NCBI GenBank assembly: GCA_964392925.1
Contig: CAYMRP010000004.1
Span: 71,184 to 135,183, forward strand
DNA length: 64,000 nucleotides
Origin: an uncultured Gammaproteobacteria bacterium
GTDB taxonomy: Bacteria > Patescibacteriota > Microgenomatia > Daviesbacterales > UBA10151
Reading direction: 5' to 3'
Shown here: one piece after another, positions 10,640-28,166 of the stretch
Layout of the letters: each line of letters begins with the position of its first letter
Numbering within the stretch: position 1 is the stretch's first letter
The notes under the pieces: model-generated
Database searches by the model: none
Seen by the model: the letters and a program-made list of their open reading frames with translations, nothing else
What the model was told of the DNA's origin: nothing
Made by a program: the position numbers and the translations under genes

Positions 10640-10641
10640 GT

Positions 10642-11343
10642 TTAGTGAACTCTTACCCTTGTCCCAGGATTATCTACAGATGCTCTTAAAGCATTAACCC
10701 CAGGCGGTAAAACAGGTCCAGTCCAATCGAATAACTCAGCAACTTCAGCCAATGGTGAATTAACACATCCATGACTCATTGGGTTTCCAAAATTACTGTG
10801 CCAATACGCCCCATGTATCGCATAACCCTGATAAAAGAACATATTATGAGGCACATTCGGTAAGTAATAATAAGTTCCTAATTCTTTTGAGCCCCCTTTC
10901 ATCGCCTGAGAACGGGTCTTATACCAAATTCTAAATTCCCCCTTTGGTGTTGCAGCCCATTTACCAGAAGATATTAAAAACTCTTTAACAATTGTATCGC
11001 CTTCATAAGCCCTTAACTTCTGCTCATCAAGCGAAACATCAATCCATTTTTCCTCACCTGCTGCATTTGTTATTCCGAGTACACTCACATCTTGAATTTG
11101 ATTATTGGATAAAATTTGAGCCAGAGATGTCTTTGGGTAATCTATGATCTCATTATTGTAAATTGCCAAATTAGCACCCTCATCAAAACCTCCATCAGAT
11201 AAATTATTTACATCACAGCACGACAATGTTGTATCTCCTGAAATTCCAAGTCTATAAGCAGCCTCACGGCGAATTGGTGTGTAATTAAAAGCGCCCACAA
11301 TCAGGGCTATAAAGACTAGTATGGGCAGAAAACGTATCATCAC
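10642..11343 (-). CDS. L,D-transpeptidase (YkuD domain)
   Basis: Catalytic motif AIHGAYWHSNFGNPMSHGCVNS (His...SHGC) and an N-terminal TM anchor. Confidence 0.85.
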   Translation of the reverse strand: MMIRFLPILVFIALIVGAFNYTPIRREAAYRLGISGDTTLSCCDVNNLSDGGFDEGANLAIYNNEIIDYPKTSLAQILSNNQIQDVSVLGITNAAGEEKWIDVSLDEQKLRAYEGDTIVKEFLISSGKWAATPKGEFRIWYKTRSQAMKGGSKELGTYYYLPNVPHNMFFYQGYAIHGAYWHSNFGNPMSHGCVNSPLAEVAELFDWTGPVLPPGVNALRASVDNPGTRVRVH

Positions 11344-11417
11344 TTCAGCGAAGAAAATAAAGCCTCAACGCTTAATATATTGTCCGGTTTGCTAGTATAA
11401 TAAGTCAAGACTTCAAT

Positions 11418-12503: not shown

Positions 12504-12557
12504 TAACTGAAAAATTTATTAGCATTCTTAGGAATATTACTTCTTAGTAGCTTTGTT

Positions 12558-13439: not shown

Positions 13440-13528
13440 ATCTTACCCCACTTCTTCATACCCAAAATAAACTATGAGCTAGCTTTCAGGATTAGAGTAT
13501 GTTATTATAGGCCCTCATAATTTTCCCA

Positions 13529-16500
13529 ATGAATCTGGGAATAGATGTTATGGGTTTAAACATGAGCAATTTAGATATCATCATCCCGGTTAAAAACGAA
13601 GAAGGCAATATTCTTGCCTTAGTCCAGAGAATCAGTCAAGCAATGAAGCTTGGAAATCTTTCCTATAAAATGATTTTCATCGATGATAATTCAAGCGATA
13701 AAACTGTCTCCTCTCTAGAAATACTAAAAAAAATCTATCCAATTGAAATACATCCAAAAAAGGGCAAGCCAGGCAAAGCTTATTCAATAATTGAGGGAGT
13801 CGATTACGCAACCAGCGATAACATCGCCATGATCGATGCCGATCTTCAATACCCCCCAGAAGTTTTGCCTCAAATGCTCAAACAATTAGCAGATTCAGGG
13901 GTAGTAATCGCCCGCCGGAAAACAGCCCAGGGCTCAAAGTTGCGAAGATTCGTCAGTAAAGCTTTTACCAATGTATTTGGCGGCCTTCTTCACAACCTAA
14001 ACGTTGATGTTCAATCAGGACTCAAAGTCTTCAAAAAAGAAGTAATTGAAAAAATAGACCCCAAGAAAATAACACCTTGGACTTTAGACCTCTCACTGGT
14101 TTTAGTTGCCCGGGATTTAGGATTAGGCATTTCAGAAGTTGATATTGAATTTGATAAAAGAAAAAATGGTAATTCAAAAGTAAGTTTAGTCAGAACTTCA
14201 ATTGAAATCGGCAAAAACGCTTTAAAGCTTAAGTTCTTTAGAAAAAGACAATTCACTATTAAACCAACTAAAGAAAACTCCATGATCGGTGGAGGCATAA
14301 TACTTAAGGGTAAAAAATATATTACTCACACCACCTTAGAAGATAAGCATCTCGCTCTCAAAACATTTAGCACCACCCAAAAGTTCATTATTGGCTCACT
14401 AGTTACCGCTGCCATAGTTGGTTTAATCACAAATCCTCTTGCTGCAATTTTAACTATAGTCGCGATTCTCAGCGTAATTTATTTTATTGACGTTGTTTTT
14501 AATATTAGTGTTGTTCTGAAGAGTCTTCATTTTCCGCCAGAAATTAAAATACCCTCGGAAGACATCGAGGCTGTAGATGATAGTAAATTACCAACCTATA
14601 CAATTCTCTGTCCTCTCTATCGAGAAGCGGATGTATTGCCGCAGTTTTTGGAGTCTATCGAAAAACTTGATTGGCCTAAAAGTAAGCTTGATGTCATACT
14701 TTTACTTGAGGAAGATGATAAAGAGACTGTCGCTGAAATTAGTAAAAAAAGACTTCCATATTACGTCAGGGCTTTAATTACTCCCGACTCTCAGCCTAAA
14801 ACAAAGCCCAAGGCCTGTAACTACGGTTTAGCCCATGCTAACGGTGAATACCTAGTTATTTATGATGCCGAAGATCGACCTGATCCAGACCAATTAAAAA
14901 AGGCCTATCTCGGCTTTAAAAATTCCGGATCTAAAATTGTCTGCTTGCAGGCAAAATTGAACTATTTTAATCCTCACCAAAATTTACTCACCCGTTTCTT
15001 TACCGCTGAATATTCACTCTGGTTCGATGTTATGCTACCGGGACTCCAGTCTATTAATACTGTGATCCCTCTGGGCGGTACCTCAAATCACTTCAGAACC
15101 GCCACCTTAAGAGATCTCGAAGGATGGGATCCATTCAACGTCACAGAGGATTGTGACTTAGGAGTGAGAATCTTTAAAAAAGGCTGGTCAACAGCAATTA
15201 TCGATTCAATAACTCTAGAAGAAGCCAATTCAAATTGGGCTAATTGGATCAGGCAGCGTTCAAGATGGCTCAAAGGTTATATGCAAACCTACCTGGTTCA
15301 TATGCGTAATCCTTTCAGTTTTATTGCTCAAAACGGCTGGCACGCTTTTGTTTTTCAACTAATTATTGGTGCCCGTATCTCGTTCATGCTTATTAACCCG
15401 ATTCTTTGGTTAACGACTCTTTCCTATTTTGCTCTCTACGCCTATGTTGGTCCGGCAATTGAAGAGATTTTTCCTTCAGCAATATTCTATATGGCGGTCT
15501 TTTCTCTTTTAGTCGGTAACTTCTCATATATCTATAACTACATGATAGGTGCCTTAAAGCGCGAGCACTATTCGCTTATTAAGTTCATTTTCTTGATCCC
15601 AATCTATTGGCTGGTGGCATCCTACGCAGCTGGAGTGGCTGCTTATCAATTAATTGTTAAACCTCACTATTGGGAAAAAACTGTCCACGGTCTCCATATC
15701 AAAAAAATGACTATAGAGAGTATAAAAGAAGAAATACTGCCCACGCTTACTGCCGATTTAATTAAGCCCTCTGACGGAAGAATGTCATTCTACAAGAAGC
15801 TATCCTTACCAAAAGCTTTAATACCAAGTGCAATTTACACCTTAGCTACTTTTATCTCAGGGATTCTTAACCTAGGATTTAATGTCTTCTTAGGTAGAGT
15901 AATCAGCTTTGAGAACTTAGCGACCTTAAGTTTAGTAAGCAGTTTTTTGTATTTTTCTTCAGTGCCTCAGAACTCCTTACTAAGCACTATCACCCATAAA
16001 GTTGGTTATCTAGAAGGTAAAGGTAAGTTAACATCAGCACTTCATTTTTTTAAACAGGCAACAAATAGATCGCTTTTAATATCTTTTATTGCCTCGGCTG
16101 CATGGCTTTTTTCAATTCCCTTTCTAATGGATTATTTCCAATCAGATGATATATTTCCTTTTCTTCTCTTTACCCCTGTTTGGACACTTGGTACGGTTTT
16201 CGCTCTGATGAAGGGGTTTTTAGTAGGGAGATTAATGCTTGCCAGAGTAGGGTTTATTCTTTTTGCTGAAACTGTATTTAAATTTAGCATAGCGCTCATT
16301 TTTATATATTTTAATCTTTCCCACTGGGCATTTGTTGCTCTACCAGGATCGATTGTGCTCAGCGCAATTCTGATAATTCTTATCTCGGGAAAACTACTTA
16401 AAGTGCCAGAGAATGCTCCACAGTTAAAAAATGAATTTAGCTTTCCTCTTAAGTTCTATTCTGCTTCTGCCCTATCAATACTTGCACCCATTGCCTTTTT

Positions 16501-18274
16501 AAGTATGGATGTCCTCTTGGCTAAGCACTACTTAGCTCCCGTTGAAGCGGGTAAGTACGCCTTGCTTTCTGTCATTGGAAAAATCATTTTCTTTATGGGT
16601 GCATTAGCTAATCAGCTAGTGCTGCCTCTGGTTAGTCGAAATGAGGGCGCGGGTCGAAGTTCAGAAAAGTTTCTTGGCTGGGTATTTATTGGAACATTCT
16701 TAGTCACAAGTCTGGGCTTCATTTTCTGGGGTTTACTTGGAGGCTATACAGTACCTCTAGTTTTCGGAGAAAAAGCCAATGAAATAACACAATTCTTAGA
16801 AATATTCACTTTTACAATGATATGTTTCTCACTCTCAAGAGTATTAGTGTCTTATTTTCTGGCCAAAAAAGTTTACACCTTCCCTATTGTTTCATCTCTA
16901 ATTGTTATTCTCCAATTCGCTTTAATTTATTTTAATCATTCCGACTTAGGGTCAATAGTTTTTGATATGTTCTTGGTCGGAGTAATTGATTTACTTGCTA
17001 TGGCTATTCTTTATTTATTCTTGCCGTATGTAAAAATATTTGAAAATAATGTTAGCGATTTATTTGGATTATTTACCCGATCACTTCCTTTTAGTAAAGC
17101 TGAAGCTAACAAAAAAGTCCGAATTCTCATATTCAATTGGAGAGATATCAGCCATGTCTGGTCTGGTGGAGCAGAGAACTATATTCATGAATTAGCAAAA
17201 CTTTGGGTGGAACAGGGTTATCAGGTAACTATTTTTTCAGGTAACGATAACTTAAGTAAACGGTATGAAGTTTTAGACGGTGTACAAATAGTTAGAAGGG
17301 GTGGGTTCTATACAGTCTACTTCTGGGCAGTTTTATATTATATTTTCCGTTTCCGCGGTCTATATGATTTAGTTATAGATTCTGAAAACGGCATCCCTTT
17401 CTTTACGCCTCTATACGTTGGAAAAGCAAAGCTTTTATTAATTCATCATATCCACCAAGAAGTTTTCAGAAATCACCTTTCTTTGCCACTGGCAATTTTT
17501 GCATCATTCCTTGAAGGCAAACTTATGCCATTTATTTATAAAAATCAAAAAGTTATAACAGTTTCTGAATCTTCAAAGCAGGAAATCTTAAAACTGGGCA
17601 AGGATGTATTTGGTGCAATTGAAATTGTTAATCCTGGAATTCACACTCATAAATTCCTCACCCTAAAGAAAACAACAAATCCATCATTCTTATATCTCGG
17701 CCGACTGCAGCCTTACAAGAATATTGAAGTAGCAATTAAAGCATTCGCACAAGTTATTTCTAAATACCCTGATGCCACTTTAACAATTGCCGGTTTTGGT
17801 GAAAGTCTGATATCTCTTAAAAAACTAGCCGGCCAATTATCAATAGAAAAATCAGTTATTTTTACTGGCCGTGTCACTGATGAGAGGAAGTACGAGCTGT
17901 TATCAGAAAGCTGGGTTATGCTTCAGCCCTCAATGATTGAAGGCTGGGGGATCACTGTTATAGAAGCAAATGCGTCCGGAACTCCTGTAATCGCCTCAAA
18001 TGTTAACGGTCTTCGTGATTCAGTTGTCGATGGTAGAACCGGCATGTTAGTTAGACCAAAAGATGTTCAGATGTTTGCCCGGGTCATGACAGATCTTATT
18101 GAAAATAAAGAATTTAGAGATTACTTATCAGCTCAGGGAATTAAGTGGTCACAAAATTTTTCTTGGAAAAAACAGGCTGAAAAATATACTCACATTATAG
18201 AAGAGACCCTCTCTGATCATACCAAGAAAGGTATAAATTTAACAAAATCATGGAGTTTAAATTTTAGAAAGTAA
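13529..18274 (+). CDS. Giant multidomain glycan synthase: GT2 (polyprenyl-P-sugar synthase-like) + processive GT2 (QxxRW) + polysaccharide-exporter-like TM domain + GT4
   Basis: A single 1581-aa ORF without internal stops. Domain 1: IIIPVKNEEGNI...FIDDNSSD...DADLQYPP. Domain 2: YTILCPLYRE...DAEDRPD...TEDCDLGVRIF...QRSRWLKGYMQ. Then about 14 predicted TM helices (polysaccharide biosynthesis/Wzx-like). C-terminal GT4: EGWGITVIEANASGTPVIAS. An alternative start is the ATG at 13562 (MSNLDIIIPV). Confidence 0.8.
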   Translation: MNLGIDVMGLNMSNLDIIIPVKNEEGNILALVQRISQAMKLGNLSYKMIFIDDNSSDKTVSSLEILKKIYPIEIHPKKGKPGKAYSIIEGVDYATSDNIAMIDADLQYPPEVLPQMLKQLADSGVVIARRKTAQGSKLRRFVSKAFTNVFGGLLHNLNVDVQSGLKVFKKEVIEKIDPKKITPWTLDLSLVLVARDLGLGISEVDIEFDKRKNGNSKVSLVRTSIEIGKNALKLKFFRKRQFTIKPTKENSMIGGGIILKGKKYITHTTLEDKHLALKTFSTTQKFIIGSLVTAAIVGLITNPLAAILTIVAILSVIYFIDVVFNISVVLKSLHFPPEIKIPSEDIEAVDDSKLPTYTILCPLYREADVLPQFLESIEKLDWPKSKLDVILLLEEDDKETVAEISKKRLPYYVRALITPDSQPKTKPKACNYGLAHANGEYLVIYDAEDRPDPDQLKKAYLGFKNSGSKIVCLQAKLNYFNPHQNLLTRFFTAEYSLWFDVMLPGLQSINTVIPLGGTSNHFRTATLRDLEGWDPFNVTEDCDLGVRIFKKGWSTAIIDSITLEEANSNWANWIRQRSRWLKGYMQTYLVHMRNPFSFIAQNGWHAFVFQLIIGARISFMLINPILWLTTLSYFALYAYVGPAIEEIFPSAIFYMAVFSLLVGNFSYIYNYMIGALKREHYSLIKFIFLIPIYWLVASYAAGVAAYQLIVKPHYWEKTVHGLHIKKMTIESIKEEILPTLTADLIKPSDGRMSFYKKLSLPKALIPSAIYTLATFISGILNLGFNVFLGRVISFENLATLSLVSSFLYFSSVPQNSLLSTITHKVGYLEGKGKLTSALHFFKQATNRSLLISFIASAAWLFSIPFLMDYFQSDDIFPFLLFTPVWTLGTVFALMKGFLVGRLMLARVGFILFAETVFKFSIALIFIYFNLSHWAFVALPGSIVLSAILIILISGKLLKVPENAPQLKNEFSFPLKFYSASALSILAPIAFLSMDVLLAKHYLAPVEAGKYALLSVIGKIIFFMGALANQLVLPLVSRNEGAGRSSEKFLGWVFIGTFLVTSLGFIFWGLLGGYTVPLVFGEKANEITQFLEIFTFTMICFSLSRVLVSYFLAKKVYTFPIVSSLIVILQFALIYFNHSDLGSIVFDMFLVGVIDLLAMAILYLFLPYVKIFENNVSDLFGLFTRSLPFSKAEANKKVRILIFNWRDISHVWSGGAENYIHELAKLWVEQGYQVTIFSGNDNLSKRYEVLDGVQIVRRGGFYTVYFWAVLYYIFRFRGLYDLVIDSENGIPFFTPLYVGKAKLLLIHHIHQEVFRNHLSLPLAIFASFLEGKLMPFIYKNQKVITVSESSKQEILKLGKDVFGAIEIVNPGIHTHKFLTLKKTTNPSFLYLGRLQPYKNIEVAIKAFAQVISKYPDATLTIAGFGESLISLKKLAGQLSIEKSVIFTGRVTDERKYELLSESWVMLQPSMIEGWGITVIEANASGTPVIASNVNGLRDSVVDGRTGMLVRPKDVQMFARVMTDLIENKEFRDYLSAQGIKWSQNFSWKKQAEKYTHIIEETLSDHTKKGINLTKSWSLNFRK

Positions 18275-18276
18275 TT

Positions 18277-18840
18277 ATGGGAAAAACGATATCAATCATC
18301 TTACGAGTCTTTAAAAAAACACAAGCCAAAATATATACCAGATTTTGGAAACTATTTCTAAAATCCTTAGGGAAATACAGTGTTCTATATCCTGGGAGCA
18401 CCTTTGCCGGGGCATGTAATATCCAAATAGGTCATCACGTATTTATTCATCAGGGAGCACATTTATATACTGGCGGCAGCAAAATTACCATTGGGAACTA
18501 CGTACTCATTGGTAGAAACTGCTCAATTATCGCCGCCAACAGAGACTATGCGAATTGGACTCGGCCTATTTATTTTGGTACAGAATATGTGAAAAAACCT
18601 GTAGTTATAAAAGATGATGTTTGGATTGGTGAACGGGTAATTATTACCGCTGGTGTGACCGTTGGGCGAGGAGTTGTAATAGGTGCGGGTTCAATCGTAA
18701 CAAAAGATGTACCTGATTTCGCTATTGTTGCTGGTGTTCCTGCCAAGTTAATTAAATATCGATTTGATAAAAAAACTATTCAGCGAGCGATGCGGATAGA
18801 CTTGTCCAAATTCAAAGATATCAAAAAGGAGAAAAAATAA
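18277..18840 (+). CDS. Hexapeptide-repeat (LbH) sugar O-acetyltransferase
   Basis: Left-handed beta-helix hexapeptide repeats (IGRNCSIIAAN...VWIGERVIITAGVTVGRGVVIGAGSIVTKDVPDFAIVAGVPAKLI), like WbbJ or maltose acetyltransferase. Confidence 0.85.
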   Translation: MGKTISIILRVFKKTQAKIYTRFWKLFLKSLGKYSVLYPGSTFAGACNIQIGHHVFIHQGAHLYTGGSKITIGNYVLIGRNCSIIAANRDYANWTRPIYFGTEYVKKPVVIKDDVWIGERVIITAGVTVGRGVVIGAGSIVTKDVPDFAIVAGVPAKLIKYRFDKKTIQRAMRIDLSKFKDIKKEKK

Positions 18841-20198
18841 TGTCCGGAATAATTACTAGAATTTCTACTTTGGCTTCCAAAAACAAACTTATAACTACAG
18901 CTGGATTATTTGTGGCAGCCTCGATGTTGGCAAATATATTCAATTGGCTTTTAAGTATCCTAGCCGGCCGGGTTTTAGATACAGATGAATTTGCAGTCTA
19001 CGCTGTTTTTGTAAGCATATTAGGCATTCTGTCTGTTCCCTCAAACGCTTTAGCAACAACAATCAGCAGATACTATGCTTATTATTCGGGAAAAGAGAGC
19101 AGTTCAGATATTAAAGCTTTGATTAACTATTATAAAAAAGTAGCGCTGATTTTAGGAGTTCTTGGTGTCCTTATAGTCTATTTCACAAACGACTATATCA
19201 GAGCTTTTTTAAAGCTACCATCAGATAGCATGGTCGTTGGGTTTGCACCCGTTGCTTTCTTTCTTTTTACGGCGGCTTACTTCAGAGGAATTTTAAAAGG
19301 AAAACTAAAATTCGGCATAGTTGGACTGATGATGATAGTAGAAACATTTACTAAGCTGATACTTTTATTCTCCGGATACATGTTAAACCTTCCTGTTCTC
19401 GTAATAGCCATCATTTCCTTACCACTTTCTTGGTCGCTTGCATCTCTGATCGGGTTTTTAGCTACTTTTGAAAACGATGATAAGACTAGAATCACAAAGA
19501 AAACAGGAACCTTAGAATTTTCAAAATTAGATAGTCATTTTTTTATGACAAACGCTTTTTTTGCTAGTGTTGGTATGATGCTAATGAATAGTGTCGATAT
19601 TTTGCTAGTAAAACATTATTTTTCCGATTTTGAAGCTGGAACTTATGCTCTATTAAGCCTTTTCGGGAAAATTCTTTACTTTGGAGGTGGAAGCTTCATA
19701 GAATTATTTGTTCCACTCACCGCTAAGTCACATGCGAAAAATTCTAACAGTAGAAATCAATTTTTTAAACTTCTCGTATTGGTATCATCAGTAGCGATCC
19801 CCACACTAATTCTATTTCTTTCATTCCCAAACTTCACAACATACCTATTCTTAAAGGATAAAGGCTACCTAGTAATTCCGTATTTGGCACCTTATCTTAT
19901 TGCAACAACATTCCTGCTTTATACCAATTGTTTTAATGCATATAACACGGCTAAAAAACATTTCATCTCGACATACCTGATAACTGCGATGGCATTAGTC
20001 CAGGGAGCTTTGATTATGATATGGCACAAATCGCTTACTGATATTGTAAACATTGTTCTTTTCACTCAAGTTGTACTTTTTGTACTAGTTCTGTTTTATG
20101 AATTTTTTATATCTCCAAAACACTCTGAAGAAAAATCAACTTCGTCACTATGGACAAAATGGTCTCCAATTTGGGAAAGGACTAACAACAATGTCTAA
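18840..20198 (+). CDS. Polysaccharide biosynthesis protein / Wzx-type (MOP superfamily) flippase
   Basis: 452 aa with about 12 predicted TM helices in the typical Wzx layout; adjacent to GT genes. Confidence 0.65.
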   Translation: MSGIITRISTLASKNKLITTAGLFVAASMLANIFNWLLSILAGRVLDTDEFAVYAVFVSILGILSVPSNALATTISRYYAYYSGKESSSDIKALINYYKKVALILGVLGVLIVYFTNDYIRAFLKLPSDSMVVGFAPVAFFLFTAAYFRGILKGKLKFGIVGLMMIVETFTKLILLFSGYMLNLPVLVIAIISLPLSWSLASLIGFLATFENDDKTRITKKTGTLEFSKLDSHFFMTNAFFASVGMMLMNSVDILLVKHYFSDFEAGTYALLSLFGKILYFGGGSFIELFVPLTAKSHAKNSNSRNQFFKLLVLVSSVAIPTLILFLSFPNFTTYLFLKDKGYLVIPYLAPYLIATTFLLYTNCFNAYNTAKKHFISTYLITAMALVQGALIMIWHKSLTDIVNIVLFTQVVLFVLVLFYEFFISPKHSEEKSTSSLWTKWSPIWERTNNNV

Positions 20199-21195
20199 AA
20201 CTTTATTAGTACAACAGCAACAGCTCCACTTTTTCTTGGTGATGCTTATGTCGTTATTCAGAAAAAAACAAACAGCCATCTCGCCTCTCCCAGCTTTAGT
20301 AAATGGCTTCGCTCTAGAGAGGGAGCTAAATTCAGGTGAGTTAATAAAGCCTCACAGAATAGGAATATACAAAAATGATCGCGGACAAAAAGGTGTAGTT
20401 AAATGGTGGAGTGGAAACAAAAAAACATTTGCAGCTATATCATTAGAGAATGAACTTTCAATGGCCAAATTATTAGAGAAATTAAACCATCGGACAATTA
20501 AAAATCAAAAACCAAATTTGACTCAAATTGGAAGTGCACATGTTATCACAAGTAGAGTAAATGAAAAAACAGTTTTTATAATGTCTGAATTTCATGAGGG
20601 AAAACTTCTTAGAGAAGTAGCAAAGGCGATCCAGATTAAAGAGTATAAACGGGCACTAAACTATTTAAGTAGTCTATCTGGCAATTTAACCCAAATTGAA
20701 ATTGACGCGCTTCCCAAGAGAACATATATTGATTACCTATTGCTTTACCCAGCTTTGTTAAGTGTCTCTATTCTAAGACAACCGAGATATTTTTGGACAT
20801 TTATAAAAGGCCTGCCCCCAGTACTTTTCTCACTTACAAAAATTAGAAAACATCCTTTAACCATAGTGCATCGAGATCTTCACACAATGAATATTATCTA
20901 TTCTCCATCTCGCACAACCATCATCGATCTACAGCGTGCTGTTCTAACTTACGGGTTATATGAGCTGGTAACAACTTTAGCAGTTGAATGGGACAACAAG
21001 GAATTACGTCAGGCGATTCTAGATTATATTTACTCATCATATTCGAATTCTTTAACTATCTTTAGAGGACTAATGATTTATTTTGCAACTCATGCTCTGA
21101 CTGCCAATAACTTGCCGGAGTATTATCTTAGCCGCTACAAAGCAATGCTTAACTTCGCGGTCTATAAATATTCCAACTATTATTTAAAAACATGA
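20191..21195 (+). CDS. Kinase-fold phosphotransferase (APH/choline-kinase-like) within the glycan locus
   Basis: Catalytic-loop-like IVHRDLHTMNIIY followed by IIDLQ (the HxDxxxxN...D pattern of APH/ChoK/Kdo-kinase folds). The track start at 20098 overlaps the upstream gene by 100 nt; the ATG at 20191 is more likely. Confidence 0.5.
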   Translation: MSKTLLVQQQQLHFFLVMLMSLFRKKQTAISPLPALVNGFALERELNSGELIKPHRIGIYKNDRGQKGVVKWWSGNKKTFAAISLENELSMAKLLEKLNHRTIKNQKPNLTQIGSAHVITSRVNEKTVFIMSEFHEGKLLREVAKAIQIKEYKRALNYLSSLSGNLTQIEIDALPKRTYIDYLLLYPALLSVSILRQPRYFWTFIKGLPPVLFSLTKIRKHPLTIVHRDLHTMNIIYSPSRTTIIDLQRAVLTYGLYELVTTLAVEWDNKELRQAILDYIYSSYSNSLTIFRGLMIYFATHALTANNLPEYYLSRYKAMLNFAVYKYSNYYLKT

Positions 21196-22097
21196 AAACA
21201 AAAAAAACATTAACTATTTGTATACCCGCATTTAATGAGGCAGAAAATCTAAAAAAACTGCTTCCATCCCTACTCGCTCAAAAAAGGTCAACTTACATTC
21301 TTTCTAAAATAATAGTAGCCTCTGATGCAAGCACTGACACTATATATAATGTGGTAAAGAAAATAGGAAGCAAAAAAATAAATGTTATACATGGAAAGGA
21401 GAGAAAAGGTGTCGCTTATCGTCAAAATCAATTATTAGAAAAATCGACCTCTGATATTGTAGTTCTTCTTAATGCTGACATCGCTGTTATCGATTTCAGA
21501 TATATTGAGAAATTAGTTGCTCCAATTATAAAAAATAAAGCCGATATGACTTCATCAGCTCTCATGGAAACAAGTCCCCGCACTTTTTTCGAAAAAGCCC
21601 TATATACCAGCATGCAAGCAAAAAAATATGCTTTCAATAAATTCAAAGACGGAAATAATGTCTATACCTGTCGCGGACCTGCAAGAGCTTTTAGTAAAAA
21701 TCTCTATAAAATAATTCGTTTCCCTTCTGGTATCGGGGAGGATGCATACTCCTACCTTTTTACAATCAAACGAGGCATGCGATTTATCGCTGTTAAAAAC
21801 GCTACAGTCTACTATTCCTTGCCCACAACCTTTAAAGATCACAAAAGACAAAGCCTGCGTTACCTGAGTTCTAAATCAAATTTTACTTCCAAATTTGGCG
21901 AAAAGTTTGTCAAAGATGAATACAACCTTCCCCTAAAATATATATTGGAAGCAGCTCTGTTCTACTCAATGTCGAATCCTATCTATATGCTTTGCTACTT
22001 CATGATCTTCATGCAAATAAATCTTAGATCTCTATTCAAAAACACCCAGAGTGAAACATGGGAGGTGGCAACAAGTTCAAAGTTGCTAAATGTATAA
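21192..22097 (+). CDS. Glycosyltransferase family 2
   Basis: The N-terminus LTICIPAFNEAENL and DxD-type motifs (VASDASTD, LNADI) are typical of GT2. Confidence 0.8.
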   Translation: MKTKKTLTICIPAFNEAENLKKLLPSLLAQKRSTYILSKIIVASDASTDTIYNVVKKIGSKKINVIHGKERKGVAYRQNQLLEKSTSDIVVLLNADIAVIDFRYIEKLVAPIIKNKADMTSSALMETSPRTFFEKALYTSMQAKKYAFNKFKDGNNVYTCRGPARAFSKNLYKIIRFPSGIGEDAYSYLFTIKRGMRFIAVKNATVYYSLPTTFKDHKRQSLRYLSSKSNFTSKFGEKFVKDEYNLPLKYILEAALFYSMSNPIYMLCYFMIFMQINLRSLFKNTQSETWEVATSSKLLNV

Positions 22098-22905
22098 AAT
22101 GAAAACCAATCCAATATTTATCATTCGCCGTTATATATACAAAACTCTAAATCTGGTCGATCGCCTTTTTGACAACAATACTAAAGCATTTGTTCTTTGC
22201 TATCACGGAATTGACTCCAGTGACTGGAGGTTTAGTATTTCGCTTATCATGTTCAAAAAACAAATTAAGCATCTGAAAAATGAAGGCTACTCTTTCATAA
22301 CAACTAAAGACATATTGGAATATTGCCAAGGTAAAAAAATTCTACCTAAGCCTAGTGTTGCAATAACTTTCGATGATGGATACAAAAGCATGAAAATAGT
22401 CGCTAAATTTCTCAAAGAAGAAAAAATTGAACCAACCCTATTCCTCCTCTCTCAAACAGTAAAACCTAACTGGAAAGAAATTGGTAAAAAGGACAGTTTC
22501 TTAAATTTCTCTGAGATAAAATCCTTGGAAAGAAATGGCTGGTTAATGGGAAGTCACAGCAGCACACATGCTAACCTTTCAGAGCTATCAAAAGAAGAGT
22601 TGGTAAATGAAATCTCAAATTCTAAAAAAGTGTTAGAACAAAAGCTTAAGAAATCTATTTCAGATTTTGCATACCCAAGAGGTAAATACAATGATTCCGT
22701 ACTAAAGCAAGTAAAAAAAGCTGGATTTAAAGCGGGTTGGACTATGGACGATGGATTTTTGGGTCCACAAACAAACTTACTTCAAATACCCAGAATAGGA
22801 GTTGACAGAACCCATTCCTTAGAAGAGTTTAAAACGCTATTCAGCCCATCGGCAATATTAATGCGAAAACTTATAAAACAATCTCCCATAGGAGGATTAC
22901 TATGA
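22090..22905 (+). CDS. Polysaccharide deacetylase (NodB homology domain, CE4)
   Basis: NodB motifs: TFDDGY (motif 1) and HSSTHANLSEL (His motif). Confidence 0.85.
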   Translation: MYKMKTNPIFIIRRYIYKTLNLVDRLFDNNTKAFVLCYHGIDSSDWRFSISLIMFKKQIKHLKNEGYSFITTKDILEYCQGKKILPKPSVAITFDDGYKSMKIVAKFLKEEKIEPTLFLLSQTVKPNWKEIGKKDSFLNFSEIKSLERNGWLMGSHSSTHANLSELSKEELVNEISNSKKVLEQKLKKSISDFAYPRGKYNDSVLKQVKKAGFKAGWTMDDGFLGPQTNLLQIPRIGVDRTHSLEEFKTLFSPSAILMRKLIKQSPIGGLL

Positions 22906-24074
22906 AAAGTAAACAAATTGATGTTGTAGTGAAATATTTTCACCCTGTTGCGGCGGGTATAGAAACTAACATACTTAATACATATAGTGTGCTTGCCCAA
23001 ATGGGTTGGGATGTTCGTATTCACACATCTACAAACACTCACACGGGTAAGGACATACTTCCAAAATTCGAAATAATCAGAGGCTTAAAAGTATATCGCT
23101 ATAAACATCATTGGTATGGAATACAGCCTAATATAGACTATACGAAAACTTCTTTAGTTTGTATCCATAATTTTAATATCTTTCCTCATATTCAAATAAT
23201 GACTAAAGCGATACTGGGTAACCTAACGAAAACAAAGAAGTACGGGCTGGTCTTGACCCCTCACGGGGGTTACACTCCTGATTGGAACGTTTTTGGACCA
23301 ATATCAAAACAAATTAAGAAAATCTATCACAGAACCCTAGGTAAAATTCTTATTAATTTATCTTGTGATGCAATAAGAGCAGTCTCAGTATGGGAGAAAG
23401 ACCAAATAATTAGCCAGGGAGTTAATAAAGATATTATTCAAGTTATAACAAATGGGGTAGAGAATGAAGCATTTGTAGATTTAAATAAAGAAGCAAGTAA
23501 ACAGGTCAAGAATCTCGCTCACTCATTAGGCGACTATATAATCCAGGTTGGAAGAATATACCCAATTAAAAACTACGAAACGACAATTCGAGCTCTTAGT
23601 CTGATCCCAGGTAACCTAAAATATGCTATTACTGGAGCAGATTCAGAGAAATCCGGTTATTTTAATTCCCTCAAAAAATTAATTAAATCGTTGGGGCTTG
23701 AAGAAAGAGTTGTCTTCACGGGAGTCATTTCCGGGGTCGATAAATTCTATCTCATGAATAAAGCCCAGATGATGGTCCATATGGCACATTGGGAGAGTTT
23801 TTGTAATGTGGTTCACGAAGGAATGAGCCAAGGATTAGTCTGTATCGTGGCCAACAATACTGCACTTCCATATCTAATAAAAAATAATGTGAACGGATAC
23901 TGTGTTGAAACTTTTGACTATAAATCTTTAGCAAGCAAGATTGAATATGTCATAAAAAACAAAAACAAGAAAGAAATTATTCAAATCGAAAAGAATAATA
24001 AAAATATTGGTTCTCAGGAAACTTGGGGTGCAGTTGCTGAAAAAATGAATAACTTGTATCTAAAGCTAATATGA
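22902..24074 (+). CDS. Glycosyltransferase family 4 (group 1)
   Basis: GT-B architecture with the C-terminal motif HMAHWESFCNVVHEGMSQGLVCIV (E-X7-E-like). Confidence 0.75.
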   Translation: MKSKQIDVVVKYFHPVAAGIETNILNTYSVLAQMGWDVRIHTSTNTHTGKDILPKFEIIRGLKVYRYKHHWYGIQPNIDYTKTSLVCIHNFNIFPHIQIMTKAILGNLTKTKKYGLVLTPHGGYTPDWNVFGPISKQIKKIYHRTLGKILINLSCDAIRAVSVWEKDQIISQGVNKDIIQVITNGVENEAFVDLNKEASKQVKNLAHSLGDYIIQVGRIYPIKNYETTIRALSLIPGNLKYAITGADSEKSGYFNSLKKLIKSLGLEERVVFTGVISGVDKFYLMNKAQMMVHMAHWESFCNVVHEGMSQGLVCIVANNTALPYLIKNNVNGYCVETFDYKSLASKIEYVIKNKNKKEIIQIEKNNKNIGSQETWGAVAEKMNNLYLKLI

Positions 24075-24964
24075 AAAAGAAATTAAAAATATCAATCGCT
24101 ATACCTACTTACGAAGCCGGAGAAAGTCTTGTTGTCACACTCCGCTCTATCTACAATCAAACTTTTTATTCGGAAATAGATAAAATTTATGTGGCTATAG
24201 ATGGTAATAAGATAAAAAGCAAAATCATGAATAAAATAAAAAATCCAAAGCTGAGTCTACTTCACTATAAAAGAAGAGAAGGCCAAGCCCAAAGAATTAA
24301 TAATTTATTCAAAAAATCGAGTTCTGACATTTTGGTATTAACCAACGATGATATCTACTTAACCAATACCTTAGTCGAGGAAATTGTCCGCACTTATAAT
24401 GGTGACCTGATATTAGGAAATGTCCTAGGTATCAAGCCTCAGACATTCATTGAGAGACTCGTCTTGGTAGGAGCAAATATTAATAAAAGAGTCGCAGAAT
24501 CCTGGAATTCAGGCGACAATTATCTTTCCTGCAACGGCAGACTGATCATACTTTCTAAAAAATTATATAAAAGAATAGAGCTGCCGAAAACAATTTGGAA
24601 TAGTGATGCTTATATTTATTTCTATGCAAAAAAACTTAAATCTGAAGTTAATATCGGCAAAGAACTAAAAGCATATTTCAGAGCTCCTAGCAATCTTGAA
24701 GAGCATATTAAGCAGAGTGATAAGTTTCAAATGTCTCGGGAGGAAAATATGTCTTATTTTAAAGAGGATATATCTAAACAATACGACATACCTAAAGCTC
24801 TAAAATTTAAATCCCTCATTCTTGAATTCCTATTAAACCCAGTGATTACTTTTTGCTACGTACTTATTTATATCTATACAAGAACCCATAGAAAATACTA
24901 TAATATACAACATAAGGATTTTTGGGAAACTGATAAAACAACTAAGCAATTGAAAATATCATGA
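24071..24964 (+). CDS. Glycosyltransferase family 2
   Basis: ISIAIPTYEAGESL at the N-terminus, a DGNK/TNDDIYL DxD region, and a C-terminal TM helix. Confidence 0.75.
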   Translation: MKKKLKISIAIPTYEAGESLVVTLRSIYNQTFYSEIDKIYVAIDGNKIKSKIMNKIKNPKLSLLHYKRREGQAQRINNLFKKSSSDILVLTNDDIYLTNTLVEEIVRTYNGDLILGNVLGIKPQTFIERLVLVGANINKRVAESWNSGDNYLSCNGRLIILSKKLYKRIELPKTIWNSDAYIYFYAKKLKSEVNIGKELKAYFRAPSNLEEHIKQSDKFQMSREENMSYFKEDISKQYDIPKALKFKSLILEFLLNPVITFCYVLIYIYTRTHRKYYNIQHKDFWETDKTTKQLKIS

Positions 24965-26511
24965 AAAAAATAATTACTTCAATACTATTAATAATCTTCA
25001 GTTTCGTAATTCTAACTCTTTCTATAAGGGGCATAGCTGGTAATCCTAGTGATGCTACCATTAACGAACCGTACTGGAAAGATAATGGTCCTTTAGAGCT
25101 CTCACCTGAAAGAGGTAAATTTGCTCTGACATATTCCTTCGTTGAGGATAATTCTGTTCATTTCTCGGTTCCAATAGCAAAATTCTCGACACCCGACTTA
25201 GGTTATAGTAAAGGTAATTATGTCTCACTTTTTGCACCAGGCGTAGCCTATATAACAATACCAGGATATATTATAGGTAAGGAATTTGGCTCTTCGCAAG
25301 TTGGCACTTATGCTGTAATAGCATTATTCGCGATAATGAACGCAGCCTTAATAAATTTAATCCTCCTAAGGCTTGGTGTAAGGAGTATTTTATCTGCTAT
25401 AAGTAGTATCATTTTTCTATTCGCGACACCGGCTTTCGCATATGCCGTATCTCTATATCAGCATCATATATCCACATTTATAATACTTCTAAGTGTATAT
25501 CTGCTGCAAAGATTTAAAGGAATTTGGCCACTGGTAATTATATGGTTTATCTTAGCCATATCTTTAGCAGTAGATAATCCAAATCTTTTTATGGTTTTCC
25601 CGATCGGGATATATGCATTAGGGCGAGTAGTTTACGCAAAAATTGATCAGAACAAGGTTAAGGTAGGAGTGAAGACATTAGCAGTTCTGACTTTAGTCAC
25701 TGCTTTAGTCCCTCTTTTACTTTTCGGGTGGTTCAACAAAATATCTTATGGCGACGCTATGAGACTTGGAGGTACTGTGGCATCGGTTAAAGAAATAGAT
25801 GAACAAGGTAAGCCAGCTGCTCCAAAAAATACAGGAACAACTAATGTTGCCCAGTTTATCAATCCTGATCAGCAAAAAAAGTCAGCTCTCAGATTCTTTA
25901 AGACCAGAAATATATTAAACGGCTTTTATATTCATTTTATTAGTCCTGACAGAGGCATTATATATTTTACACCGGTCATACTATTGGGTTTCATTGGAAT
26001 GTTTTATTTTTACAGGAAAGATTCGGGATTAACGTCTCTTCTTATTGCAATCATGGGAACAAATATCCTGCTGTATTCTATGTGGGGTGATGCATGGGGA
26101 GGATGGGCGTTTGGTTCGAGATATTTAGTACCTTCTTATGCAATACTCGCCATTTTCCTTGGTGTCGCCCTAAACAGGTTCCATCGGAATATTATATTTA
26201 TACTTGTGTTCTTATCTCTTTTTGTATATTCGGCAGCTATAAATACCGTAGGTGCTATTACTTCCAATAGAAATCCTCCTCAGGTTGAAGTTTTGGGTCT
26301 GGAGCAGCTAACAGGCAAACAAGAAAAATACACTTATGAAAGAAATTTTGACATGCTAGGCATTAATCAATCTAAATCTTTTGTATTTAATACTACAGTT
26401 AACAAATATTTCACTGCATGGGAATACTACTATTTCCTGACGGGGCTAATTATTCTCTCAGTGGCATTGCCATTAATTACACTTAACGCACTAGACTGGA
26501 GAAGAAAATGA
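24961..26511 (+). CDS. Polytopic membrane protein, putative GT-C-fold glycosyltransferase (ArnT/PMT-like)
   Basis: 516 aa with more than 10 predicted TM helices, a first extracytoplasmic loop carrying an acidic motif (FVEDNS), and a location beside a polyprenyl-P-sugar synthase-like GT2. The assignment rests on topology and context only. Confidence 0.45.
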   Translation: MKKIITSILLIIFSFVILTLSIRGIAGNPSDATINEPYWKDNGPLELSPERGKFALTYSFVEDNSVHFSVPIAKFSTPDLGYSKGNYVSLFAPGVAYITIPGYIIGKEFGSSQVGTYAVIALFAIMNAALINLILLRLGVRSILSAISSIIFLFATPAFAYAVSLYQHHISTFIILLSVYLLQRFKGIWPLVIIWFILAISLAVDNPNLFMVFPIGIYALGRVVYAKIDQNKVKVGVKTLAVLTLVTALVPLLLFGWFNKISYGDAMRLGGTVASVKEIDEQGKPAAPKNTGTTNVAQFINPDQQKKSALRFFKTRNILNGFYIHFISPDRGIIYFTPVILLGFIGMFYFYRKDSGLTSLLIAIMGTNILLYSMWGDAWGGWAFGSRYLVPSYAILAIFLGVALNRFHRNIIFILVFLSLFVYSAAINTVGAITSNRNPPQVEVLGLEQLTGKQEKYTYERNFDMLGINQSKSFVFNTTVNKYFTAWEYYYFLTGLIILSVALPLITLNALDWRRK

Positions 26512-28166
26512 TAAAAATAAATAAGTTAGCTGAAATAGAAATAGAGCTTAATGTCTCTTTACTAGACAAAATTAAAGATTTTTTCTCTAAGTATGGACTC
26601 TACTTCATAATTTTAATACTTTCAGGCATTTCCGTAGGCGGATTTCTATACTTTCTTGAAAACGGATTAGGGCTCGCATACAACGATGCCAGATCCCATT
26701 TAAATATTGGCCGAAGAGTAGTAGAAGGGTTAAAGCCAGGTTTCGCCCAAATTGGTAGTGTCTGGTTACCTCTACCTCACGTTCTAATGATTCCTACAAT
26801 CTGGAATGATTTTATGTGGCACACAGGTTTATCCGGTGCAATTGTCTCGATGTCCTCCTTTATTGGAACAGGTGTATTAGTCTATAAGTTCCTTCAAAAA
26901 CTAGGAGCAGGATTAATGGGTAGATGGATGGGAGTTCTTGTGCTGGTAGCAAACATTAATATTCTATATTTGCAATCTACCGCAATGACTGAACTATTAT
27001 TACTTTTCACAATGACCGCCGCAGCCTACGACCTAATGATCTGGCACCAATCAAGCAGAATTATTAATCTGGTTAAAGCCGCATTTTGGATAATGTTATC
27101 AACTCTCGTCAGATATGATGGTTGGTTCCTATTTTTCGTATCAGTTATTCTTATAGTCATTAATCTTATGCGGGTGGGTAGTTTTAAAATAAAGGATCTC
27201 CCTGCTAAATATTTCAAAATAGAGGGAGTCGTCATTGCTTTCTGTACGTTAGCAGGTCTTGGAGTTTTTCTATGGTTACTATGGAACCTATTAATTTTTA
27301 AAGATCCGTTTTTCTTTGCCTTTGGCCCATACTCAGCTCATGCCCAGCAACAGCAATTAGAAAGTGCGGGGGAGTTAATTACCAAACATGATTGGTTTCT
27401 TTCAGCTAAGTTTTATACATATGCTCTAGCCTATAATTCCGGAGCTTTCTCAGCACTTCTTGGGATATTTGGGTTAGTAGCTATTTGGTTCGATAAGAAG
27501 CTATTAACACCGGTAAAATTTGCAGTGTTTGCTTTAGTTGCACCACTTTTATTCAATATATTAGCATTATACCTTGGGCATTCAGTTCTATTTATCCAAG
27601 GACTTTCTGGTGATGTCTGGTTCAATGTCCGATACGGCATTATGATGATGCCATCAATAGCAATCTTTATTGGTTTTCTTATCGATAGGGTTAAGAATCT
27701 TAGAGCAGTCCTTATCGGGCTTTTACTACTTACGATTTTCTTCCAGTTCCAAAACTTTGATGCAGTTACTATTGATGATGCCAGAGTTGGATCTTCTCAG
27801 AAAAATGTCAGCGAAGTATCAGATTGGCTATCTCAAAATGCTAAAGATAGGGATGGGTTCATTTTAATCTCAGCAGCCTCACACGACGCTATTATTTTTT
27901 CATCTGGATTACCAATGAAAAAATTTATCCATGAAGGTACCGGCAGATATTGGGAATCCGCAACAACAAATCCTGAAAGATGGGCAAGATGGATTATTGC
28001 CAGAACTCATGACAATAACGATTCTACGTGGAGAGCTGTATCGCAAACTCCAGATATTAATAACTATATTCTTGTTAAGTCTTACCCGTTTGCAGATATC
28101 TACGAACTAAAGCCAGAGTTCCTCCCTAACCTCAATACAAAACCTATCTTAGGCAAGCAAAAGTAG
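26508..28166 (+). CDS. Polytopic membrane protein, putative GT-C-fold glycosyltransferase
   Basis: 552 aa with an N-terminal block of about 11 TM helices and a C-terminal soluble extracytoplasmic domain; translationally coupled to the preceding gene. Confidence 0.45.
   Translation: MIKINKLAEIEIELNVSLLDKIKDFFSKYGLYFIILILSGISVGGFLYFLENGLGLAYNDARSHLNIGRRVVEGLKPGFAQIGSVWLPLPHVLMIPTIWNDFMWHTGLSGAIVSMSSFIGTGVLVYKFLQKLGAGLMGRWMGVLVLVANINILYLQSTAMTELLLLFTMTAAAYDLMIWHQSSRIINLVKAAFWIMLSTLVRYDGWFLFFVSVILIVINLMRVGSFKIKDLPAKYFKIEGVVIAFCTLAGLGVFLWLLWNLLIFKDPFFFAFGPYSAHAQQQQLESAGELITKHDWFLSAKFYTYALAYNSGAFSALLGIFGLVAIWFDKKLLTPVKFAVFALVAPLLFNILALYLGHSVLFIQGLSGDVWFNVRYGIMMMPSIAIFIGFLIDRVKNLRAVLIGLLLLTIFFQFQNFDAVTIDDARVGSSQKNVSEVSDWLSQNAKDRDGFILISAASHDAIIFSSGLPMKKFIHEGTGRYWESATTNPERWARWIIARTHDNNDSTWRAVSQTPDINNYILVKSYPFADIYELKPEFLPNLNTKPILGKQK

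Follow-up and report, generated by a model that had tools for sequence, protein, structure and literature searches.

Does a 1581-residue frame that strings together four glycan-related modules encode one real protein and, if so, what kind of pathway does it serve? The question is raised by a locus on the forward strand of the window, by which we mean the whole stretch of 64,000 nucleotides analysed here. An earlier sequence-only reading had described a single uninterrupted 4.7-kb ORF, and the ORF translation agrees, giving one frame of 1581 codons (13529-18274, +) without an internal stop. We infer that so many open codons at approximately 38% GC far exceed what chance would produce. Translation may begin at any one of three ATG codons, at 13529, 13550, or 13562. 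Coordinates of the modules and of the neighbouring genes are collected in Table 1.

Table 1 The four-module ORF and its downstream neighbours in the window.
Feature	Position	Strand	Extent, basis or remark
Whole ORF, modules M1-M2-M3-M4, 1581 aa	13529..18274	+	ORF; homologues; alternative starts 13550, 13562
M1, GT-A GT2 of polyprenyl-phosphate glycosyltransferase type	13529..14248	+	aa 1-240; PF00535, motifs, PDB matches
M2, membrane-embedded cellulose-synthase-like GT2	14369..15694	+	aa 281-722; Pfam; profile vs PDB; motifs
M3, MOP-superfamily (Wzx/MurJ/MATE fold) transporter	15809..17077	+	aa 761-1183; AF2 model, Foldseek vs PDB
M4, GT-B GT4 glycosyltransferase	17117..18223	+	aa 1197-1565; PF13439 + PF00534, motifs, PDB matches
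Hexapeptide-repeat acetyltransferase, WcaF/WbbJ-like	18277..18840	+	
Stand-alone MOP / Polysacc_synt flippase, M3 paralogue	18840..20198	+	PF01943 34.8 bits, above cut-off
APH-family kinase-like protein	20191..21195	+	longest ORF from 20098; gene call of near-identical contig, 20191
GT2	21192-22097	+	
Polysaccharide deacetylase	22090-22905	+	
Agl16-like GT4	22902-24074	+	
GT2	24071-24964	+	
516-aa multi-TM protein	24961..26511	+	no Pfam match; weak similarity to LA_3751/LA_3752 putative glycosyltransferase family
552-aa predicted GT-C-fold glycosyltransferase	26508..28166	+	invariant YNDA.SH (aa 58-64), first loop
336-aa protein, N-terminal TM anchor + extracytoplasmic domain	28176..29186	+	conserved partner
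Ser/Gly-rich secreted protein, C-terminal LASTG sorting signal	29267-29905	+	
Sortase	29907-30485	+	right after LASTG protein

Authenticity and layout of the protein

All four modules named by the sequence-only reading, here M1 to M4, were recovered in the order it gave, M1, M2, and M4 by Pfam and M3 by an AF2 model searched with Foldseek. That reading had also suggested looking for the same order among relatives, and homologues with all four modules, order kept, were found in at least 120 distinct 90%-identity clusters. They are full-length (1535-1607 aa), share 48-72% identity, and are labelled merely "glycosyltransferase" in public databases, so the protein is not a rare oddity. Literature searches covering CPR, Microgenomates, and Patescibacteria returned no publication describing it, in line with the earlier statement that the architecture had not been described; papers on XagB offered nothing informative. 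An exact look-up of the window protein gave no record and the near-identical P0001 was used in its place; NCBI protein P0391 is identical to the window protein.

The alternative that separate genes were wrongly joined by assembly or annotation draws on loci L006, L008, and L014, where the coding frame is broken at a module border into ORFs that overlap; such splits are therefore real in some loci or are products of sequencing error. Against it, the full frame recurs across many projects, is intact in an independent, near-identical wastewater assembly (97.8% nucleotide identity), and shows no frame breaks where the inter-module linkers of homologues are aligned. Because at least 120 divergent clusters keep the order and an identical NCBI protein is on record, an artefact is exceedingly improbable, and the 1581-aa fusion, a protein of 180 kDa, is a genuine, conserved inner-membrane single polypeptide.

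The chain runs M1, two TM helices, M2, about four TM helices, the 12-TM M3, and M4, with the catalytic domains of M1, M2, and M4 all on the cytoplasmic side. This gives approximately 18 helices (2 + ~4 + 12) in place of the roughly 14 counted earlier, and it moves the second junction from about 15400 to near nt 15700 (aa ~722). We assigned the helices at aa ~604-706 to M2 because stand-alone homologues stop right past the conserved YWEKTxHG. The side of the membrane on which M2 ends can be read from the fusions: its C-terminus must be cytoplasmic since MOP-less M2-M4 fusions use a non-TM linker, and an even number of C-terminal helices is then required, which together with hydropathy led to the count of about four. 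Catalytic motifs and residues are invariant or nearly so across 56-120 homologues.

Family assignments of the modules

M1 carries PF00535 (GT2; Pfam scan) at aa 17-145, with DDNSSD at aa 52-57, DAD at 103-105, and the hallmark IDADLQYPPE at 102-111, where D103, D105, Y108, and P110 are invariant and L106, Q107, and E111 are at least 90% conserved. Its PDB matches were P. furiosus Dol-P-Man synthase (2.8e-18), GtrB (5.6e-15), and ArnC (1.3e-11). The domain thus combines a GT-A, DxDLQxPPE-type motif with similarity to DPMS/GtrB/ArnC-type GT2s, and the two hydrophobic helices that follow it (aa ~286-330), common to M2, provide a membrane anchor. Since the top NCBIfam matches all fell below their equivalog cut-offs (PgfS, 69.4 against 500 bits; ArnC, 63.2 against 529; AglJ, 47 against 325), M1 was placed in the superfamily only, as a sequence-predicted polyprenyl-phosphate sugar synthase of DPMS/GtrB/ArnC type. 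The module had been read as an initiation-type enzyme; the polyprenyl-phosphate-synthase type is upheld by its sequence, whereas "initiation" is uncertain, the usual product of such enzymes being a donor for GT-C enzymes and normally not a primer.

M2 is the best conserved of the four modules. The Pfam scan placed Glyco_tranf_2_3 / Glyco_trans_2_3 at aa 355-636, and the motifs comprise DAED (446-449), TED (539-541), QRSRW (576-580), and a terminal PHYWEKTVHG. Among 56 sequences, D396 is at least 90% conserved, and D397, D446-A-E-D449, T539-E-D541, and Q576-R-S-R-W580 are invariant. M2 thus has the D, DxD, TED, and QxxRW signature of BcsA, hyaluronan synthase, PgaC, and NodC-type synthases, which stand-alone homologues of other phyla also keep, and it shares with them a TM-flanked GT-A domain. 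Profile comparison with the PDB matched E. coli BcsA (2.6e-21), R. sphaeroides BcsA (1.7e-15), PcManGT (2.7e-11), and HAS1 (9e-6). Hydropathy indicated two helices before the GT domain and three or four after it, with invariant intramembrane motifs. Codon differences between strains (86 synonymous against 5 non-synonymous) indicate purifying selection. M2 lies below the equivalog cut-offs of CelA (79 against 699.1 bits) and PgaC (55.3 against 422.3 bits) and differs from BcsA in having neither a PilZ domain nor a BcsB-like partner; its own invariant motifs (PKTKPKA.N.GL, PLGGTSNHF, and YWEKT.HG) and its fusion to three further modules also set it apart from BcsA-type enzymes, and its processivity is putative, judged from sequence. 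QxxRW GT2s are not always processive, and the presence of the minimal cellulose-synthase-like PcManGT among the PDB matches of M2 speaks against the model that we prefer below.

M2 orthologues of Firmicutes, Actinobacteria, and Chloroflexi bear an MshEN domain, a c-di-GMP receptor, at the N-terminus. NfrB carries its MshEN domain at the other end, the C-terminus, and the CPR proteins lack the domain, the Pfam scan having found none in the 1581-aa window protein. Activated by c-di-GMP, the MshEN-GT2 protein NfrB of E. coli nevertheless resembles the non-CPR orthologues, which are likewise MshEN-fused GT2 synthases, and exopolysaccharide machines of the synthase type, NfrB among them, typically have c-di-GMP receptor domains (PMC8669469). 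NfrB was rejected as the family of M2 (21% identity, E 2e-6).

For M3, the sequence scan of the window protein gave only MatE, at 23.6 bits against a cut-off of 24.9, and no NCBIfam match, while PF01943/PF13440 is precomputed in 14 of the 120 homologues. The AF2 model (pLDDT 89.5) has 12 long TM helices, in keeping with the 12-14 of a two-bundle MOP fold, and Foldseek matched it to MATE1, MurJ, and WzxE in the PDB with a probability of 1.0 and TM-scores of 0.6-0.74 over ~440 columns. The module also aligns with the adjoining PF01943 protein (24% identity, E 1e-20). Export of the polymer by M3, as had been proposed, is unlikely, because M2 brings conserved TM helices of its own and because M1-M2-M4 fusions without a MOP module occur; no MOP gene was found near those fusions, in flanks of up to 10 kb a side. 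The predicted role that fits better than polymer exporter is that of a Wzx-type flippase acting on the lipid-linked sugar that M1 would make.

M4 matched PF13439 (5.5e-12) and PF00534 (2.6e-42) at aa 1213-1540, and thus has the Glyco_transf_4 N-domain and Glycos_transf_1 C-domain of a GT4 together with EX7E (E1471-X7-E1479, both Glu invariant) and NWRD..H.W.GGAE. Its PDB matches were MshA, PimA, and PimB.

Fusions across phyla, the operon and its GT-C-fold member

Related loci show the arrangements M1-M2-M3-M4, M2-M3-M4, M1-M2-M4, M2-M4, M1-M2 with separate M3-M4, and M2 with separate M3-M4. Modules fused in Microgenomates are separate neighbouring genes in other bacteria. M1 and the MOP module are not obligatory in cis, as each is missing from some variants; no M1-like gene was found in the flanks of the M1-less ones (up to 10 kb a side). 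Both absences count against the model preferred below. Firmicutes have a triad made up of MshEN-M2, a GtrB-like GT2, and a homologue of the downstream 552-aa protein, often beside candidate genes that we take, from an N-terminal motif, to belong to the GDP-mannose pathway. The partner enzymes recur fused or adjacent across phyla. Read as a "Rosetta stone", the fusion would bring together two halves that cooperate in a single surface-glycan pathway, and the fusions as a group point to a pathway, so far uncharacterised, that also needs the downstream GT-C glycosyltransferase.

The commonest context of the MOP subfamily of M3 is an M3-M4-type arrangement. Many proteins of ~820 aa have an M3-type MOP module at the N-terminus and look like M3-M4 fusions, with a GT4 C-terminus confirmed in one (P0126). 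Such tight pairing, which could mean that the MOP module carries the product of the GT4 and not that of M1, is a point against our preferred model. It would also suit two polymerase/export units, in which M2 acts like BcsA, a Pel-like M3-M4 pair yields another polymer or a copolymer, and M1 serves decoration only. In Pel, the GT4 PelF polymerises and the MOP-like PelG is implicated in export (PMC7112168), and a polysaccharide deacetylase lies in the operon here as it does in Pel and PNAG systems. We regard this arrangement as very unlikely, however, given that M4 scored 41.5 bits against the PelF cut-off of 100, that the scanned neighbours included no PelD/PelE-like genes, and that M4 is also fused straight to M2 with the MOP module absent; a further difference from Pel is the fusion of the pair to two GT2 modules. 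Membership of M3-M4 in Pel was ruled out by the PelF score.

The fusion gene is the first of an operon of ~16 kb with at least 10 further glycan genes, among them a second MOP gene, more GT2s and GT4s, a deacetylase, an acetyltransferase, and two large membrane proteins. The picture of a minimalist, self-contained machine is therefore abandoned, as the operon adds both a MOP paralogue and a GT-C-fold enzyme. The block of four genes at 21192..24964 (GT2, deacetylase, GT4, GT2) recurs downstream in many related loci, the 516-aa membrane protein was found in 30 of 80, and the LASTG protein and sortase lie downstream in 12 and 8, respectively. The Ser/Gly-rich LASTG protein is possibly an acceptor or a mere neighbour. 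A promoter/terminator scan of the operon gave fewer promoter-like sites than in shuffled sequences, no nucleotide-sugar genes that might hint at the sugar were found upstream, and an Rfam scan of the window returned one tRNA only. For the 336-aa anchored protein there was no Pfam, NCBIfam, or PDB match, and its identification as a glycoside hydrolase was accordingly dropped.

The fold of the 552-aa protein is GT-C, and an acidic residue is conserved in its first extracytoplasmic loop. The protein matched nothing in Pfam or NCBIfam even at E 10 or 0.1, and none of its 120 homologues has a precomputed Pfam domain. It is a new, Pfam-less GT-C family outside PMT, ArnT/GT83, YfhO, and STT3, and the fusions offer a functional handle on this large family of "hypothetical" membrane proteins. 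The 516-aa protein is not its paralogue (hhalign probability 6%). Characterised GT-C enzymes use polyprenyl-phosphate-linked donors (PMC8035078).

Candidate routes for the surface glycan

The best model overall, which we hold as a tentative favourite, combines a polymer made by M2 and M4 with a lipid-linked-sugar line of M1, M3, and the GT-C protein. M2, resembling BcsA, HAS, and PgaC, would polymerise sugar from a nucleotide donor and thread the chain through its own TM helices, and M4, a retaining GT4 tethered to the cytoplasmic C-terminus of M2, might add a primer or a second, alpha-linked sugar at the cytoplasmic face. M1 would charge polyprenyl phosphate with a monosaccharide, M3 would flip the product, and the GT-C-fold enzyme could use the flipped sugar outside, for decoration of the polymer or its attachment to a final acceptor. 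Help may come from the 516-aa multi-TM protein and the anchored 336-aa one, and the remaining GT2s, GT4, deacetylase, acetyltransferase, kinase-like protein, and second MOP protein of the operon may diversify the product.

The lipid-linked half of this model resembles the GtrB/GtrA/GtrV, CsbB/GtcA/YfhO, ArnC/ArnEF/ArnT, and GacI/GacJ/GacK/GacL (S. pyogenes) systems, which likewise combine a polyprenyl-phosphate GT2, a flippase, and a GT-C transferase; here all three lie in one operon. GacI/GacK/GacL is a proposed precedent for a Wzx-type flippase acting on an Und-P-monosaccharide, the type proposed for GacK being that of M3. In contrast to those systems, the GT-A enzyme and flippase are here covalently joined both to one another and to a synthase plus a GT4, no described sequence family contains the GT-C protein, and the acceptor would be a synthase-made polymer instead of teichoic acid, rhamnan, or O-antigen.

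A different reading is that M1, M2, M4, and the operon GT2s and GT4 build an oligosaccharide step by step, as in archaeal Agl or Lactococcus Wps systems (polyprenyl-monophosphate glycans with Wzx-like flipping). M1 would prime polyprenyl phosphate, the others would add sugars in the cytoplasm, M3 would flip the unit, and the GT-C enzyme would transfer it en bloc, say to the LASTG sortase substrate or the cell wall. The set of a DPMS/AglJ-like GT2, GT2s and GT4s, a MOP flippase, and a GT-C protein is common to those pathways and this locus, and oligosaccharide units are the classical cargo of Wzx-type transporters. The best curated matches of M1 include AglJ, Dol-P hexose transferase, and PgfS, both M4 and the neighbouring GT4 match Agl16, PcManGT, which has the cellulose-synthase-like fold in minimal form, is an N-glycan enzyme, and the LASTG protein and sortase recur downstream. 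Yet no Agl equivalog cut-off was reached, the genes here are fused, and M2 keeps six conserved, synthase-type TM helices with invariant intramembrane motifs, matches BcsA far better than PcManGT, and has orthologues elsewhere that bear the MshEN domain typical of polymer synthases. M2, M4, and the GT-C protein are moreover retained together in M1-less and MOP-less variants. We judge such a stepwise line to be rather unlikely.

Alternatively, the product of M1 could be the primer of a lipid-primed synthase, with M2 elongating and translocating the chain, the GT-C enzyme moving the whole polymer to its acceptor, and M3 and M4 as accessories. The O-antigen route of Salmonella O:54 (WbbE/WbbF) is both synthase-dependent and lipid-primed and thus offers a precedent, the M1-M2 fusion is frequent and also exists alone, and Chloroflexi have M2 joined in one chain with a GT-C protein homologue. 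This scheme would leave the MOP module without a role, however; several otherwise complete loci have no M1, and GtrB/DPMS-type products are normally donors rather than primers, all of which makes it decidedly unlikely.

Returning to the preferred model of a polymer and a lipid-linked-sugar line, we further envisage, with less assurance, a hybrid pathway in which a cellulose-synthase-like polymerase is coupled to a full lipid-linked-sugar line (polyprenyl-P GT2, Wzx-type flippase, and the new GT-C family), so that the polymer may acquire branches or an anchor on its way out of the channel. It might be controlled by c-di-GMP in Firmicutes, Actinobacteria, and Chloroflexi and be a constitutive one-chain version in Microgenomates, where it might make the main envelope glycan. 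To our knowledge, Microgenomates have not been brought into culture, and next to nothing is on record about the chemistry of their envelope. Few envelope loci in this analysis are conserved as well as the fusion gene and its operon, which are thus good candidates for making a major surface polymer. Through the fusions, a new GT-C family is tied to four enzyme classes, all of them usually studied apart, as synthase-dependent versus lipid-carrier-dependent systems. The unfused triad with its c-di-GMP switch, in cultured Paenibacillus, Sporolactobacillus, and Desulforamulus, provides a system that can be tested at the bench.

The open frame and its four modules

The claim of one stop-free 4.7-kb ORF was confirmed in the window as a single open frame of 1581 codons, with candidate start codons at 13529, 13550 or 13562 and no break in composition across it (GC ~0.38 overall). 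Three glycosyltransferase (GT) modules were recovered by Pfam in the order proposed by the sequence-only reading, namely a polyprenyl-phosphate-type GT2 (M1), a cellulose-synthase-like GT2 (M2) and a GT4 (M4), and all the motifs it had quoted were found. The hydrophobic middle region (M3) on its own gave only a sub-threshold MatE match in the domain scan. A structure model of M3, built from an alignment of 55 homologues, contains 12 long membrane helices (pLDDT 89.5, pTM 0.87), and Foldseek comparison with the PDB returned MOP-superfamily transporters exclusively, among them human MATE1, MurJ of E. coli and the lipid III flippase WzxE (~440 aligned columns each, TM-scores 0.6-0.74). M3 also resembles the stand-alone MOP protein encoded just downstream (24% identity, E 1e-20), which exceeds the Polysacc_synt (PF01943) threshold. 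Given the Pfam matches, the MOP fold and this likeness, all four modules are real, including the proposed exporter-like domain. Two details were revised: the M2/M3 border lies near nt 15700 instead of 15400, and the whole protein has ~18 TM helices (2 + ~4 + 12), where about 14 had been assigned to the exporter.

Features of the window discussed in the text
Feature	Position	Description
Upstream genes	9965-13439	VanW-like protein; YkuD L,D-transpeptidase (minus strand); beta-helix protein; S11 D-Ala-D-Ala carboxypeptidase
Fused ORF	13529-18274 (+)	1581 aa, heads the gene run
M1	aa 17-145	Glycos_transf_2 (Pfam)
M1 motif	aa 52-57	DDNSSD
M1 motif	aa 103-105	DAD
M2	aa 355-636	Glyco_tranf_2_3 / Glyco_trans_2_3 (Pfam)
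M2 motif	aa 446-449	DAED
M2 motif	aa 539-541	TED
M2 motif	aa 576-580	QRSRW
M3	aa 741-1200	Region modelled
M4	aa 1213-1540	Glyco_transf_4 + Glycos_transf_1 (Pfam, E 2.6e-42)
M4 motif	E1471-X7-E1479	
Run 1		Hexapeptide acetyltransferase
Run 2	18840-20198	MOP paralogue, stand-alone Polysacc_synt flippase
Run 3		APH-like kinase
Run 4		GT2
Run 5		Polysaccharide deacetylase
Run 6		Agl16-like GT4
Run 7		Second GT2
Run 8	24961-26511 (+)	516-aa multi-TM protein
Run 9	26508-28166 (+)	552-aa multi-TM protein (GT-C)
Run 10	28176-29186 (+)	336-aa protein, TM-anchored
Run 11	29267-30485	Ser/Gly-rich LASTG sortase substrate, then sortase
tRNA	48559-48630 (-)	
GC-rich segment	52001-54000	

M1 carries the hallmark motif DADLQxPPE and is closest to P. 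furiosus Dol-P-Man synthase, GtrB and ArnC; its matches to the curated families PgfS, ArnC and AglJ are all far under cut-off. A profile of M2 matched E. coli BcsA (2.6e-21), R. sphaeroides BcsA (1.7e-15), PcManGT (2.7e-11) and HAS1 (9e-6); M2 falls under the CelA and PgaC cut-offs and is 21% identical to NfrB. M4 is closest to MshA, PimA, PimB and Agl16. By these matches, each module adds a new member to a broad superfamily and lies outside any curated functional family.

Among 5.8 billion clustered proteins searched, the best 120 matches considered were 1535-1607 aa long, with 48-72% identity across 97-100% of the query, and all had the same Pfam set as the window protein. Their named sources were Microgenomates lineages (Woese-, Gottesman-, Levybacteria), and they are annotated as 'glycosyltransferase', nothing more. 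The implied rarity of the four-module order was thus not borne out, as it is already abundant in databases (at least 120 matches), though unnamed. Furthermore, the window protein has an exact match in one NCBI protein, another cluster member differs at 9 residues, and the frame is kept in an independent wastewater assembly (97.8% nucleotide identity). With a frame shared by at least 120 clustered homologues, that identical protein and that assembly, we regard erroneous assembly as an extremely improbable origin of the ORF. Across the family, the three GT modules keep their catalytic residues without exception, and M3 is the least conserved of the four modules. In M2, 86 of the codon differences between strains are synonymous and 5 non-synonymous; the module is under strong purifying selection.

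Relative to the near-identical wastewater strain (locus L082), differences across 10529-15499 are patchy: divergence is ~10% in 10529-12500 and ~13% in 14779-15499 (within M2, nearly all synonymous), while 12500-14750 is nearly identical and 15500-21274 identical. Such a pattern suggests recombination tracts or a strain-mosaic assembly.

Fusions and partners of M2 in related loci

When one genome per GTDB species was scanned with a profile, at least 596 relatives came up; ORF-level mapping covered the 80 loci that were retained. Besides the full M1-M2-M3-M4 form, we found a break after M1 (M1 followed by M2-M3-M4), M2-M3-M4 (e.g., Amesbacteria), M1-M2-M4 and M2-M4 without the MOP module, M1-M2 alone (several loci), and the adjacent gene pairs M1-M2 with M3-M4, M2 with M3-M4, and M2 with M3. 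M4 scored 41.5 bits against PelF (cut-off 100), and a Pel-like M3-M4 unit operating beside M2 seems very doubtful to us. No M1-like gene was found near M1-less variants in the flanks examined (up to 10 kb per side). In MOP-less fusions, a non-membrane linker of 60-100 aa separates M2's terminal YWEKTxHGLHL motif from the GT4, so the C-terminus of M2 is cytoplasmic; no MOP gene was found within their flanks of up to 10 kb per side, so the MOP module is dispensable in cis. One M1-M2-M4 variant of 1377 aa (L018, 9977-14107) has an insertion-like stretch of ~270 aa separating M2 from M4, in which several segments are hydrophobic. Similarity of these segments to the MOP module was undetectable, and they may represent a degenerate or replaced transporter half.

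An exhaustive search of representatives with the MOP region yielded 143 clusters at E<1e-30, with proteins of ~1560-1610 aa, many of ~820 aa with an N-terminal MOP region, and stand-alone forms of ~420 aa. The ~820-aa proteins look like M3-M4 fusions, given the C-terminal GT4 in P0126, the sole one looked up. Of the 80 loci, 41 have the 552-aa GT-C protein downstream, 30 the 516-aa protein and 22 the 336-aa protein. Many loci (L001, L003, L004, L016-L018, L022 and others) come from MAGs titled 'uncultured Gammaproteobacteria', 'Bdellovibrionales' or 'Pseudomonadales', yet the operon is of typical CPR type; these labels are probably wrong.

Outside CPR, M2 is remarkably well conserved (50-57% identity), and in Paenibacillus, Nocardioides and a Chloroflexi MAG it has MshEN domains, which are c-di-GMP receptors, at its N-terminus. 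In other Chloroflexi (L043, 9800-12787; L044; L048), an M2-type synthase bears at its C-terminus a GT-C part homologous to the 552-aa protein, a second, independent Rosetta-stone fusion. Cultured Firmicutes possess a triad of MshEN-M2, a GtrB-like GT2 (26-30% identity to M1) and a ~530-aa GT-C homologue (Paenibacillus macquariensis, L059, 9149-19992; also L057, L058, L065 and L072), with the first two genes tandemly duplicated in P. macquariensis. Often nearby are genes that we take, by N-terminal motif alone, to be GDP-mannose pyrophosphorylase- and phosphomannomutase-like. The triad makes this c-di-GMP-linked system, apparently uncharacterised so far, accessible to experiment.

Proposed mechanism and operon context

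M2 is linked to M1, M3, M4 and the GT-C protein by adjacency and by fusions that arose independently more than once, and by topology all GT domains are cytoplasmic. We tentatively prefer a model in which polymer synthesis by M2 with M4 is combined with a transmembrane glycosylation line. M2 would act as polymerase and translocase, like BcsA/HAS-type synthases, with M4 working alongside it at the cytoplasmic face; the c-di-GMP receptor domains on non-CPR orthologues fit this synthase class (NfrB, PMC8669469). M1, M3 and the GT-C enzyme would form the line, which matches the multi-component type reviewed in PMC8035078 and is similar to GacI/GacK/GacL, a system in which the GlcNAc-P-undecaprenol used by a GT-C enzyme is proposed to be flipped by a Wzx-type protein. 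The same partners could instead serve a lipid-primed synthase, with a primer from M1 and transfer of the finished chain by the GT-C enzyme, which we consider improbable.

The gene run is tightly packed on one strand, and many genes overlap. The four-module protein depends on this large operon and is therefore not the minimalist machine that had been suggested. The M3 paralogue lies two genes past the fused gene, giving the locus two flippases. Peptidoglycan-remodelling genes stand directly upstream. The small secreted protein of the last pair, a possible target of O-glycosylation, combines a long Ser/Gly-rich stretch with LASTG, a TM segment and a basic tail at its C-terminus; it and the sortase recur downstream of the glycan operon in 12 and 8 of the 80 related loci, respectively. 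A sequential Agl/Wps-like lipid-linked oligosaccharide line ending on this Ser/Gly-rich protein or on the wall is unlikely in our view, though it deserves some weight beside the preferred polymer-synthase model.

Every component belongs to a known kind, and the value of the locus lies in its Rosetta-stone links and a new GT-C family. No literature on the four-module protein or on an M2 and GT-C association was found in a search that most subscription journals lay outside, which is absence of evidence only. Elsewhere in the window, one tRNA is the sole Rfam match, and the GC content rises locally to 0.47 at 52-54 kb, where GC skew is positive.
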